Shown here in pieces: positions 9,106 through 64,000 of a DNA stretch of 64,000 nt. The stretch's first letter is position 1. The number at the start of each line of letters is the position of its first letter. The stretch spans positions 172,050,001-172,114,000 of the forward strand of contig OX597814.1 of assembly GCA_951406725.2 (NCBI GenBank). The letters are read 5' to 3'. Source of the DNA: Octopus vulgaris (lineage: Eukaryota). The position numbers were made by a program, and so were the translations under genes. Under the pieces are notes generated by a model, which did not search any database, was not told where the DNA came from, and saw only the letters and a list, made by a program, of their open reading frames with translations.

Positions 9106-9556
9106 GGCGGCGAGCTAGTAGAATCGTTACCGTGCCGGGGAAATGCTTAGGAATATTTCTTCCGTTCTGAGTTCAAACGCCGCCGAGGTCGACTTTGCTA
9201 TTCATCCTTTCAGGGTCGATTAAATAAGTACCAAATACGCACTGGGGTCGATGTAATCGACTTAATCCCTTTGTCTGTCCTTGTTTGCTCCCTCTATGTT
9301 TAGTCCCATGTGAGCAATATATAAATAAATATTAGCACGTCCTAAAGGCTGCGAGCTGGCAGAATCGTTACTGCGCCGGGAAAAATGCTTAACAGTATTT
9401 CTTCCGTTGTGAGTTCAAACGCCGCCGAGGTCGACTTTGCCTTTTATACTTTCGGGGTCGATGGTATAAGTACCAGCTGAAAAGTGGTGACGATATAATC
9501 AATTTATCCTCTCTCCGAACTTTTTGGCCTTGTGCCAAAATTTGAAATCAATATTA
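9106..9556 (+). mobile_element. Two adjacent family A SINEs with different 3' tails
   Basis: The first (to about 9327) ends tttgtctgtccttgtttgc..aaata. The second (from about 9347) ends ggccttgtgccaaaatttgaaatcaatatt. The duplicated flank aatatta(t/g)cacgt(t/c)ctaaa brackets the first copy. Confidence 0.85.
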
Positions 9557-10089
9557 TTACGTTATAAGTGCTAGATATGAGAGTTTCCATTTTAACACTT
9601 TGTTTCAATATTTTCTCAGTACTATGTTATTTGTTTTATACAAGAGCACAACTCTAGTTTATTCATCTATTCAACTTGCTTGCTAAATTTATATCTTCCC
9701 TATTTAGACTTCCAGTACCTTTCAGCCATATAAATGAATGTCTATTTTAGAAGTTATGCTCCATATCGAAGATGCGACAGACTCATACAGAATTTTCTGT
9801 TTATAATAAACGTGTTGAAGCAAAACGTGGTGCCATATCCGAAAGATATAGCTGCACATTTTGTCTCAGCTCTTGGGGTTTATAATTCAATGTTTCCTTT
9901 TTGTTTCATCAAGCTATTTTTTTGTAAATTTTGTTTTCTTTTTTTTCGCAAGTTTTGCATCAGCGATAGTATATCTAAAGTATCTTGGTAAAAATGAAAT
10001 ATATTTATAATTAAGAGCTCCCCTCCGTCTCAAGATTTCTATTGCAGAAATCCAAAAATGAAATCCATTGTAATATGTATACTTTCTAA

Positions 10090-10850
10090 GACGGTGAGCT
10101 AGCAGAACTGTTAGCATCCCGGGCAAAATGCTAAGTGGCATTTCGTCCGTCTTTACGTTCTAGGATCAAACTCCACCGAGATCGATTTCTCCTTCTATCT
10201 TTTCGGGGTACCAGCTGAATATCTCCCCCGAAATTTCAGGACGTAACAGAATCTGAAACTAATATATATGTATATACATCGTGACTGGGTGACTGTGGTA
10301 TTTTCCTGCTATTTCATTGTCTGCATGCAGTTCTAGCTGCAAAAAGAATTTTCGTATTACTCAACCTGCTTTTTGGTTATTATTTTGTTCAAATCAAATT
10401 AGGAACGACTTTGTCTTTCCACCTTAACAGCTCGGTGAAATAATATACCAGTCAAATCATGGGTCTGATGATAATCAATTATGATTTTTATCACAAATTC
10501 ATCGCCTTTTACTTGTGTTGTATTTGTGTCAAAATATCGCAGACCGCTACTCAGAGGTTTATATTTCCAACTACCTGTTCGGTCAGACTTGTTTCATTTT
10601 TTTGCTTAAAACCGTAAATCATATATCATTTCATTACGTTGGCAGCTTTGAAGATGGCGAGCAGGTAGAATCGTTATCACGTAGGAGAAAAAATTTTAGC
10701 GACATTTCGTCCATCTTTACGTTGAGTTCAGATTCTGCCGAGACTGACTTTGCATTTCATCCTTTTCGGATCGATAAAAAAAACCAGTTGAACTGTGAGG
10801 TCGATATAATCGGTTGGCCCCCTCCTCCAAAATTTCAGGCATTGTGCACA
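10090..10850 (+). mobile_element. Two diverged family A SINEs (about 10090-10260 and 10655-10850)
   Basis: Similarity to the family A consensus. Confidence 0.75.
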
Positions 10851-10947
10851 CGGGCATGTATGTATGTGTGTGTGCGTGCGTGTGCATGTGTGTGAGTGTG
10901 CGTGTGTTCCCTTCTAGTACCAAAAAATACTTTCGCCAGATCAGGAT

Positions 10948-11061
10948 CAATGTCCAGTCAGCCGTGCCAAATCGCCAATGTCCAATCAGCCGTGCCAAAT
11001 CGCCAATGTCCAGTCAGCCGTGCCAAATCGCCAATGTCCAAATAGCCAGGCCCAATCGGCG
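10948..11061. repeat. 28-bp minisatellite, about 4 copies (caatgtccagtcagccgtgccaaatcgc)
   Basis: Direct head-to-tail repetition without spacers. Confidence 0.9.
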
Positions 11062-61204: not shown

Positions 61205-63311
61205 TATCTATTCTACAAAGGGATCTAAAATATCTGTTGCAATCATGGTACAAGCTACCAAGTCAAAGCGCATCAAAGCAAATCAAAGTGCGCGTTTTTA
61301 TGTCTATTGGTTACGTCCACCATGGGAAGCGTCGTGAAAAATGACCGTTTGTGGTTTCCTACAAATGCAGAAAAACAACAACTCATACTACTCACTCTAA
61401 GTTCTTTTTAAAGAGTTACAGTGAAGCTTGAAAGAAATCTCCATGCTATTTTTAGTAGATCAAGCGACCACGTAGAGAATACGTCGCAATAGCTGTATGA
61501 TATGTATAATTCTTCTTATTGGTCCTTTGTGCATTATCTTTGCAAAAAATGTGATTCTCAGTGTTTAAATACTGTTTAACCAAAGGCTAACCTTGATTGA
61601 GCAAAGCTTTAATCAAAGGCGTTCTGGCTGTGACCATCTTATCAGTTCACAGTGCATTTGCAGATTTATATGTTTTATTTTATATATGTATTCTCGTGAA
61701 CATAATTCCATGTCTACACATGTACATATATACTTAAATCATAACACTCTGGAAAGCTTTATAGATTTTTACCTTTCCATTGATGGCTTGGATCTGTAGT
61801 CTTCAAATCAGCTCTATCTTTTTTGGTTTTGAGAAGCCTAATTTCTCAAGAGTGGTAATTTAAGGCAGTGTGTTACATATCATAGTGCTCCAATAATTAC
61901 AAGTATAAACCAGGACTTATAATCTGATTAGAGTATCTGTAGATTTCTCAATAGTTCAGCGTAGGTATTATCCTTTTCGCTGATCTTTGATTTTATGTTA
62001 ATATCCGTTGGGCAGCTGATTTCCACAACTGCACACAGTTTCTCTTATCTATCCAAAATCTCTATGCCAAGTCTATGTACGTATGTATGTATGTATGTAT
62101 GTATGTATGTATGTATGTATGTATGTATGTATGTATGTATGTATGTATGTATGCATTTTTACATAATGAATTTTGTTGTGTTCACAGTTTAATAAAACAA
62201 TCATACCCAACATTAATACCTCCAAGTTTTCTCTGGTTCTCTTCCGCCACTATTTTGTGTCTCGTATCTTTGGTTTTGATTTTCTTTGCTCACCGATTTT
62301 TATTTTCTATATTTTCCTCTCTTTCCATTTTCTTTCTTTTCTTTACTGTCGTAATGACTTTCTTTATATTTCTTGCTTTCATTCTAATATTTGTGTTCAA
62401 AAATTCTTTTCCTAAAATTCTTTTAAACTATTTTTCTTTTAAATCTCATACCGTATTGTGTCTACCCTCCTCTCATTGATCTTTCCATAAATCCCGCCAC
62501 AAAAAACATACATACATACATACATACATACATACATACATACATACATACATACATACATACATGCATGCATACATACATACGTACATATATACATACA
62601 TATACACACACACATACATACATACATACATACATACAAATATACATACATACATACATATACAAGAACACAAACTTAAATAAAACCAGGCACTCTCTCT
62701 TTCTCTCTCTCTCTCTCTCTCTCTCACACACACATTCTCTCTGTCTGACACACACATACACATACACACACATATTCTCTGTCTGCCTGTCTCTATCTGC
62801 CTACCTACCTATATATATATGTGTGTGTGTATATGTGTGTGAGTGGGAGTGTGTGTGTGTGTATATGTGTGTGAGTGGGAGTGTGTGTGTGTGTGTATGT
62901 GTACAGAGAATGTGTGAGAGAGACTGTATGTTTCTGTACATGAATACATTGAATTTTTATACGTGTGCGTATGTGTGTGTGTGTGTGTGTGTGTGCATTC
63001 TCCCATTCTCCTTTTTAAAATTCTTATCGTCTTTATTCTTTTATTTCGTTTCGGCGGGGGTGGGGCGGGAGGGAGTGTCTTCTCACACATTTTCCCCTGT
63101 CTCCTTCACCCCTTTAGCTTTTTATTCATCCATCACGTTCTCTCAGCTGGTGTGATATTCTCGGTAGTCACGCTTCACCGCGTTCGCCCGAATCAGATCT
63201 CAGAATTAAACAAAACAAAATAAAAACAAGCAATGAACGAAACAAAACGAACAAAACAAAATCACCACCAGTAATAGCTTATATACACCCTCTAGTTTAA
63301 AAGTATTCTAC

Positions 63312-63383
63312 TTTAAGCAAACCACACAACACCCTTTTTAAGCAAGCCACACAACACCCTTTTTAAGCAAGCCACACAACACC
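63312..63383. repeat. Tandem repeat of about 25 bp, 3 copies (ttttaagcaagccacacaacaccct)
   Basis: Directly visible. Confidence 0.85.
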
Positions 63384-63714
63384 ATATACACGTTAATACG
63401 CTTTTTTCGTCAGACACTATACGTTTCCAGCGACCATCTTCTACACTTTATAATTTTCGTTATTTTGTTCGCCCTCTTCTTTCTTTGTCTTCCATTTTGT
63501 CTTTTTCCAGCTGAATTCAGTTGGTTCTTAGCGAGGTGGGCCTTTTTTTTTCTTTTTGTTATGTCCCCATTGGTTTTAGGGTGAAATAGATATGTGCATG
63601 GATATGTGTGTAAGTAAGTGTATGTAAATCAGTTATGTTTCATTCTGTGTATGAAAGATATGCGTAGGTTATATATATGCATGTGTGTTGTCCTTTTAAT
63701 ATATCTTGCTGATA

Positions 63715-64000
63715 GGTTGCGAGCTGGCAGAATCATTTAGCTCGCCGGGCGAAATGCTTAGCGATATTTCGTCTGCCGCTACGTTCTGAGTTCAAATTCC
63801 GTCGAGGTCGACTTTGCCTTTCATCCTTTCGGGGTCGATTAAATAAGTACCAGTTACTCACTGGGGTTGATATAATCGACTTAATCCGTTTGTCTGTCCA
63901 CTCTGTGTTTAGCCCCTTGTGGGTAATAAAGAAATAGGTATTTCGTCTGCCGCTACGTTCTGAGTTCAAATTCCGCCGAGGTCGACTTTGCCTTTCATCC
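63715..64000 (+). mobile_element. Tx1-tailed family A SINE followed directly by a second copy starting at ggtatttcgtc (runs off the window)
   Basis: ..gggtaataaagaaata|ggtatttcgtctgccgctacg.. Confidence 0.88.

Follow-up and report, generated by a model that had tools for sequence, protein, structure and literature searches.

Target preference is known from long interspersed elements (LINEs) of the Tx1 clade, which can carry a short interspersed element (SINE) into fixed sites of another transposon (PMC4494074). The nearest case to ours is that of crocodilian SINEU-3 and Tx1-Mar in Mariner-N4_AMi (Kojima 2015, PMC4494074), and the criterion for a target-preferring pair has been that more than 20% of flanks fall in one repeat type (PMC4494074). 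Papers on octopus repeats report abundant SINEs and L1-Tx1 families (PMC13282606, PMC8967140, PMC4824008, PMC4758252), with SINEs making up ~11.6% of the Octopus vulgaris genome (PMC13282606). Here we describe family A, a SINE in a 64,000-nucleotide (nt) stretch of O. vulgaris contig OX597814.1 (positions 172,050,001 to 172,114,000; this whole stretch is called the window), copies of which have inserted repeatedly and independently at one internal site of pre-existing copies of the same family. As with SINEU-3 in Mariner-N4_AMi, a target-preferring LINE would take a SINE to fixed positions of an abundant repeat (PMC4494074). Unlike SINEU-3, the octopus SINE has its own family as target, so that cDNA and target are homologous. 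The parts covered of the four octopus papers hold no description of this element's target, and no published account of the element was found in the literature searched, with Repbase Reports and most subscription papers outside that coverage.

The window is 37% G+C and rich in microsatellites. Family A is a short, non-coding dispersed repeat with a consensus of 231 nt, and its 40 matches occupy 8.3% of the window. A shared head and body (nt 1-165) is followed by one of two tail types: an older type that ends in AATATT or (ATT)n, and a second tail of 66 nt with the terminus AAAGAAATA and without poly(A). Motifs resembling the A and B box consensus sequences were found by eye at nt 11-21 and 73-85; ARAGORN and Rfam gave no matches within the window. 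Target-site duplications (TSDs), 5' inversions and a precise 3' end are signs of target-primed reverse transcription, and family A copies bear such marks in the form of TSDs, 5' truncation or inversion and a precise 3' end. In octopus origin, putative tRNA-like head and very high copy number the family is like the tRNA-derived OR1/OR2 (CORE-SINE; PMC4824008, PMC4758252). The likeness is one of description, as no OR1/OR2 consensus turned up in the literature searched. Patterns made from the tail and body found nothing in viral or prokaryote collections, and two metagenome matches of 19-20 nt each were dismissed as chance.

Eleven tailed insertions, ten SINE copies and one LINE-like fragment, are present in the window. 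They are given below with their hosts; a slash marks the insertion point, and C48 denotes a subfamily with CGTATT in place of GGTATT at consensus nt 48.

9106-9327, + strand: old tailed copy whose first ~85 nt duplicate the adjoining host (shared 8-9 bp deletion, substitutions); seamless join; 3' flank AATATT at 9328; TSD 17/19
9347-9549, + strand: old host from family A; its tail is of the other, non-target type
13098-13274, + strand: 5'-truncated tailed copy with a 5' inversion, at C/GATATC (13275) in non-SINE DNA; TSD 13083-13097 and 13275-13289, 15/15
23420-23590, - strand: remainder of an old host, from nt 48 through a tail of the other type; 27 of 113 positions differ
23591-23821, - strand: tailed copy, C48, joined to host nt 48; young head (3 differences in 46); no host duplication; flank GGTATT at 23590
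35201-35369, + strand: LINE-like fragment of a 3' untranslated region (UTR), only its last 44 nt common with the SINE tail; TSD 10/10; flank TATATA (35370), off-motif
35520-35676, - strand: remainder of an old host, from nt 48 through a tail of the other type; 21 of 110 positions differ; an 11/11 duplication flanks the composite
35677-35906, - strand: tailed copy joined to host nt 48; young head (2 differences in 46); flank GGTATT at 35676
35992-36222, + strand: full tailed copy, C48, at nt 48 of a very old host, whose head is visible upstream; TSD 35977-35991 and 36223-36237, 15/15; flank GGTATT
36777-37008, - strand: full tailed copy, C48, antisense in the tail end of an old host, at T/AATATT (36776); TSD 37010-37030 and 36756-36776, 20/21
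53704-53890, - strand: tailed copy with an internal deletion, adjoining nt 48 of the host at 53595-53703 (GGTAAT); a 19/22 duplication flanks the composite
57081-57259, - strand: older tailed copy serving as host from nt 48; its own 3' flank (57080) is an exception to the motif
57260-57490, - strand: tailed copy that continues into host nt 48 without duplication of the host; flank GGTATT at 57259
60866-60929, + strand: head-only piece (nt 5-64), C48
63717-63936, + strand: tailed copy joined to host nt 48 (host from 63937 to the window end, GGTATT); shares the host base at nt 64, one diagnostic position
23774, 36039, 36960 and 60913: the C48 bases, at consensus nt 48

All ten 3' flanks that an original prediction, made from the letters of the window, had read off this DNA lie where it placed them, GGTAAT at 53703 and the exception at 57080 included; the LINE-like fragment is an eleventh insertion that it did not contain. 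Its single internal target position also holds, at consensus nt 48 rather than near nt 45. The inverted piece of the 13098 copy (13098-13129) is of the twin-priming type, and within 13083-13289 the TSD end and this piece overlap by a few bases, as in twin priming. A 7-bp word at the exceptional 3' end (57074-57090) recurs in the 5' flank of the whole composite (57491-57500), as a short TSD or a later deletion would leave. The young head at 60866-60929 stops at nt 64, about one TSD length beyond nt 48, with no body adjoining.

Insertion is sequence-preferring. The predicted 3' flank RRTATY is present at 8/11 tailed insertions (background, 0.29% of strand positions) and fails at one GGTAAT and at two misfits (57080 and 35370). 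In 6/11 insertions (95% interval 23-83%) the host was opened at nt 48, and the junction of tail and GGTA(T/A)T was seen six times where shuffles gave an expectation of 0.05. Three of the eight RRTATY flanks, all with clean TSDs, lie outside the SINE body (9328, 13275 and 36776). Immediately 5' of the site stands a pyrimidine in 4/4 SINE insertions with a TSD and in the consensus, but A in the LINE-like fragment. The consensus carries exactly two Y/RRTAYY sites, one in sense at nt 48 and one in antisense at nt 136. Two opposite-orientation hot spots and tandem insertions around the TSD are also features of SINEU-3 in Mariner-N4_AMi (PMC4494074); unlike the Mariner-N4 sites, the two octopus sites share a short motif (PMC4494074). 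Xenopus Tx1L resembles the octopus SINE in taking another transposon, Tx1D, as an endonuclease-determined landing site, but it nicks almost only that site, whereas the octopus motif is short and is also used outside the repeat (PMC1950540, PMC4494074). The three targets outside the SINE body and the LINE-like target are 6-bp palindromes, which are common for the motif in AT-rich DNA.

Nesting of this kind has a familiar counterpart, as Alu-in-Alu nesting and Alu gene conversion occur. The octopus insertions are like those of L1 and Alu in using a short motif at a pyrimidine-purine step, in abundant self-nesting, in TSDs near 15 bp and in 5' inversions; they are unlike them in a tail without poly(A) and in a site between promoter boxes instead of an A-rich tract. 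Human L1 and Alu nick at 5'-TTTT/AA-3' (PMC1950540).

One dimeric master or local tandem duplication could also have produced the repeated junction, and in the SINEU-3 work truncated copies were needed to exclude hitch-hiking (PMC4494074), which is likewise a concern here. The five alignable right-hand hosts differ mutually at 3-18 of 57-63 positions, up to 18/57, and they belong to different subfamilies and tail types. The sixth host (36223) is too decayed for alignment, and its insertion, the 35992-36222 copy, has the clean 15-bp TSD (15/15) at nt 48 that the original prediction had pointed out. Given this diversity, a single dimer master is excluded for the window: the right monomers are not near-identical, tail types and subfamily bases differ among them, and a dimeric SINE with one master was accordingly rejected. 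Repeated independent insertion at one internal site thus stands. One animal does have an array in which the tail and 13 nt of target are repeated in tandem (run X22; 61 and 25 reads), which favors a master or tandem duplication; we regard that origin for the repeated junction as scarcely credible. The repeat unit in the X22 reads, over window positions 36777 and 36842, is ~78 bp long and consists of nothing but the tail and 13 nt from the nt-48 target; this minisatellite would come from either a truncated nested insertion or serial insertions.

Reads and contigs of three organisms were compared with a single reference copy at 36726-37150, using two raw runs of organism A and contig sets of organism B (run X2), a close relative, and of organism C, another relative. 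From the organism A runs, each of 12.9 million reads, 26 and 215 reads matched, which is not enough to estimate frequencies. The tail end in organism B continues into a base other than A in 1141 contigs, whose commonest flanking sequence corresponds to nt 48-60 (agreement 0.44). When window hosts and background were mixed in simulation, a consensus of this kind arose at a host share of ~15-25% of non-A flanks, a rough lower bound because contigs merge identical junctions, SINE-matching ends were counted in a separate joint table and the counting was not exhaustive. The motif alone predicts ~14% at nt 48, given 12 intact sites at nt 48 and 72 further motif sites that start with G in the window. 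Against the >20% criterion, then, stand 6/11 insertions at nt 48 in the window and this bounded share in organism B, a weaker preference than that of SINEU-3 (90%; SINEU-1 23%, SINEU-2 13%; PMC4494074). With 5/11 insertions off nt 48 and an organism B share near the motif prediction, the proposal that old SINEs act as targeted safe harbours is unsupported or at least overstated. Among the matches listed for organism B, 10 and 5 contigs hold joints that fit nt 48 and 11 hold an opposite-strand joint at nt 136; the antisense joint shows use of a site without co-orientation or homology. In organism C, tail depth relative to body is ~4x lower. A contig of organism C matches the right flank of the 36777-37008 copy as far as 37010, the last base of the TSD, and a further 51 or more of its letters are unmatched, which suggests that the site may be empty there; the organism B contig at this copy extends 22 letters into the SINE head, short of the bridging threshold.

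At the 5' junction we distinguish three outcomes. None of the five seamless nt-48 cases, nor the exception at 57080, has a TSD adjoining its 5' end. In the first outcome, at 35992, the host head is retained and a 15-bp TSD is present. In the second, at 9106, the host's 19-bp TSD is present three times (9087-9105, 9328-9346 and ~9550-9567), and together with the shared host deletion and substitutions this means that ~100 bp or more of target was duplicated and joined seamlessly; 63717 may be alike, with a long absorbed duplication and the host head kept. In the third, the heads at 23821 and 35906 have 3 and 2 differences in 46 on hosts that are 24% and 19% diverged, when copies as old as these hosts have 6-18 head differences (P 0.002 and 0.004). 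At 23821, 35906, 53890 and 57490, the left copy matches the consensus and not the host from nt 52-60 onward. Since the host head is missing in two composites (23821 and 35906), either head replacement or a secondary spread of dimers is needed. The proposal that seamless joins form by cDNA annealing is supported as far as homology-type joins go, but simple annealing to a TSD overhang leaves the missing head in these two cases unexplained. R2 offers a precedent: pairing of cDNA with the upstream target is its favoured second-strand route (PMC13580325), and such homology gives a seamless 5' junction (PMC13580325), a step that we infer for the octopus SINE. The homology in R2 comes from co-transcribed rRNA (PMC13580325); in the octopus SINE the whole element is homologous to the target.

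Many of the seamless composites could instead be secondary dimers from many sources, in which a nested locus would be transcribed from the young promoter through the host remainder and mobilized by a LINE that reads the host's tail type, or in which reverse transcriptase would jump between two RNAs. Young heads on old hosts fit this, as do the lack of host duplication from nt 52-60 onward in 4/5 seamless cases and the duplications that flank whole composites (11/11 at 35906, 19/22 at 53890), although the latter are equally explained as the hosts' own TSDs. In organism B, moreover, one diverged tail-host junction has a depth of 2293 in 5 contigs, where single-copy flank contigs have ~50; at ~40-45x single-copy depth, some composites have been multiplied. 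On the other side, the right-hand parts in the window are all unlike, and primary targeted insertions, proven by 35992, would still be required. We think it unlikely that many of the seamless composites arose in this way, while secondary dimers may account for part of the class.

The reading that we favor, with moderate confidence, combines a LINE endonuclease with a short motif, an abundant SINE that bears the motif, and homology-driven 5' joining. The partner endonuclease would nick Y/RRTAYY, best as GGTATT, which the SINE presents once per strand, and target-primed reverse transcription would be carried out by an APE-type LINE of the L1/Tx1 kind. With a family so abundant (8.3% of the window), even a loose motif would often lead to self-nesting, and nt 48 would be preferred somewhat beyond that. 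In sense nt-48 events, cDNA homologous to the host would pair with the target overhang or invade the host head. The result would be an ordinary TSD at 35992, absorption of a long duplication at 9106 and probably 63717, and replacement of the head at 23821, 35906 and probably 57490. The net product would be a locus with a complete promoter and a new tail, not a dead locus. This reading and its rivals are not all mutually exclusive.

Several observations weigh against it. In the window, intact nt-48 sites were used in 6/13 cases and other Y/GRTAYY sites in 1/71 (P ~3e-5), and even other Y/GGTATT sites were used in 0/9 (P 0.02); the excess over the motif means that a strong preference for GGTATT(T), or help from homology, is needed, and eleven events are too few to separate such a preference from homology help or an inverted-repeat loop. 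The match at antisense nt 136 is partly post hoc because the fifth motif position was loosened from T to Y only after that joint had been observed. The LINE-like fragment at 35201-35369 sits off-motif, at TATATA. In organism C the tail end is absent among the six loose-end rows listed, and one contig with an nt-48-type joint is among the matches listed. Head replacement is read from divergence, and dimer retrotransposition would yield the same structure. Finally, no ORF2 (ORF, open reading frame) tied to the tail, and no partner LINE or endonuclease, was found within the window. The tail's last 44 nt are identical at 37/44 positions to the 3' fragment at 35201-35369, which is not a SINE and resembles a LINE 3' end; because this one LINE-like piece with the tail has no coding sequence, the name Tx1 that the tail had been given is a lead, not a result. 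The fragment, a T-rich UTR with its TSD in a (TA) context, is the best handle on the partner LINE.

Excess use of nt 48 could reflect a dedicated SINE-targeting LINE that reads a long site or hairpin there, with the other sites as leakage, in line with the safe-harbour proposal. The 6/11 share (95% interval 23-83%) is in keeping with such an element, and contig counts underestimate young, identical junctions. The position of the nick, moreover, is within a 6-nt loop closed by an 11-bp inverted repeat, as judged from an RNA fold of the head (z -3.2) that is not evidence for a DNA cruciform. Yet the simulated share is only ~15-25% of non-A flanks (a lower bound), against 90% for SINEU-3 in its target (PMC4494074); insertions also occur in very decayed hosts and in non-SINE DNA, and the antisense site has only the short motif in common. 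We consider a dedicated element distinctly unlikely.

The excess of sense insertions at nt 48 would also be accounted for if read-through RNA guided priming. Source copies at nt 48 would be transcribed into the host remainder, and GGUAUUU behind the tail would pair with the nicked strand, such that the motif would be whatever pairs with the read-through RNA and self-targeting would reinforce itself. The tailed consensus lacks a run of four T, so RNA polymerase III (Pol III) would probably run past its end. Each of the four SINE sites other than nt 48 pairs with the read-through for 6-7 consecutive bases (Watson-Crick or G-T wobble) and then stops, and the LINE-like fragment, which would lack such read-through, is off-motif. 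In R2, too, co-transcribed target RNA strengthens targeting (cited in PMC4494074). However, the -1 pyrimidine is not part of the paired stretch and suggests an endonuclease step, a purine/pyrimidine motif easily satisfies wobble rules, and tail-end junctions are precise, with no extra copied G in 4/4 non-GG cases. The scheme is a proposal from sequence, and to us an unlikely one.

Returning to the favored combination of short-motif nicking and homology-driven joining, its consequences for the locus differ in two respects from what the original prediction had drawn. Insertion at nt 48 had been held to build the co-oriented SINE arrays. Of 23 neighbour pairs within 250 bp (the inversion excluded), 18 are co-oriented, and only ~6-7 of these 18 include a tailed copy, so the arrays are mostly not built by nt-48 insertion. 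Tailed copies also insert in antisense (36777 in the window, nt 136 in organism B), and most of the go-back joints listed from the reads and contigs start from the other tail type. Disruption of the Pol III promoter holds insofar as the host's boxes are split; it does not hold for the composites, each of which has a complete head and body at native spacing, so that the locus keeps a promoter-like structure and gains a new tail. A net loss of the promoter thus appears to be ruled out.

The C48 subfamily lacks the target site. C48 is present in 3/8 tailed copies with heads and in one head fragment, with a linked change at nt 43. When contig depths are summed, the C48 form has no more than 9.5 million in organism B, as against 0.03 million in organism C (~300-fold), and the G48 form has 1.0 million and 0.75 million; the reference copy carries C48, which inflates the C48 share but does not account for the contrast between B and C. 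A simple picture of C48 success is at odds with the organism A raw reads, where nt 48 is G in 19/26, and with the window C48 copies, which are no closer to the mixed consensus than the G copies. Selection for escape from the target site through G48C is a hypothesis, and hitch-hiking in one master is as likely. It would be improbable, in our view, that the whole of a longer chain holds, in which read-through RNA steers copies to nt 48, cDNA invasion overwrites the host head and swaps the tail, and the recent subfamily with the greatest success escaped through a change in the site's first base (G48C) and then multiplied ~300-fold in one octopus lineage.

Other mobile-element remnants in the window are as follows.

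56295-56900, + strand: ORF1-like gene, broken, its CCHC knuckle frameshifted; 74% identity to a protein from Octopus sinensis; zf-CCHC present in a relative
25144-25782 (- strand), 31065-31553 (+ strand) and 6091-6471 (+ strand): LINE reverse-transcriptase C-terminal-like remnant or Tc1-like transposase remnants; the LINE remnant was recognized by eye, with no Pfam match, and the Tc1-like assignment has weak Pfam matches for 31065 only

A word-based search gave no longer relatives of the ORF1-like remnant, and it could not be linked to the SINE tail. A perfect tandem duplication of 112 bp at 58857-59080 is either of recent date or a product of the assembly.

That LINE machinery can target repeats is already known; new here are a target within the SINE's own family, junctions shaped by homology and a site that may have been lost. 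Nested composites of this kind will be mis-annotated as dimer families or tandem duplications. The 5'-junction step is known mainly from experiments with R2 and L1, and a SINE with its insertion motif inside itself is a natural experiment, repeated thousands of times, on the influence that cDNA-target homology has on that junction. If G48C was selected, family A would be a case of target-site self-avoidance in a retroposon.

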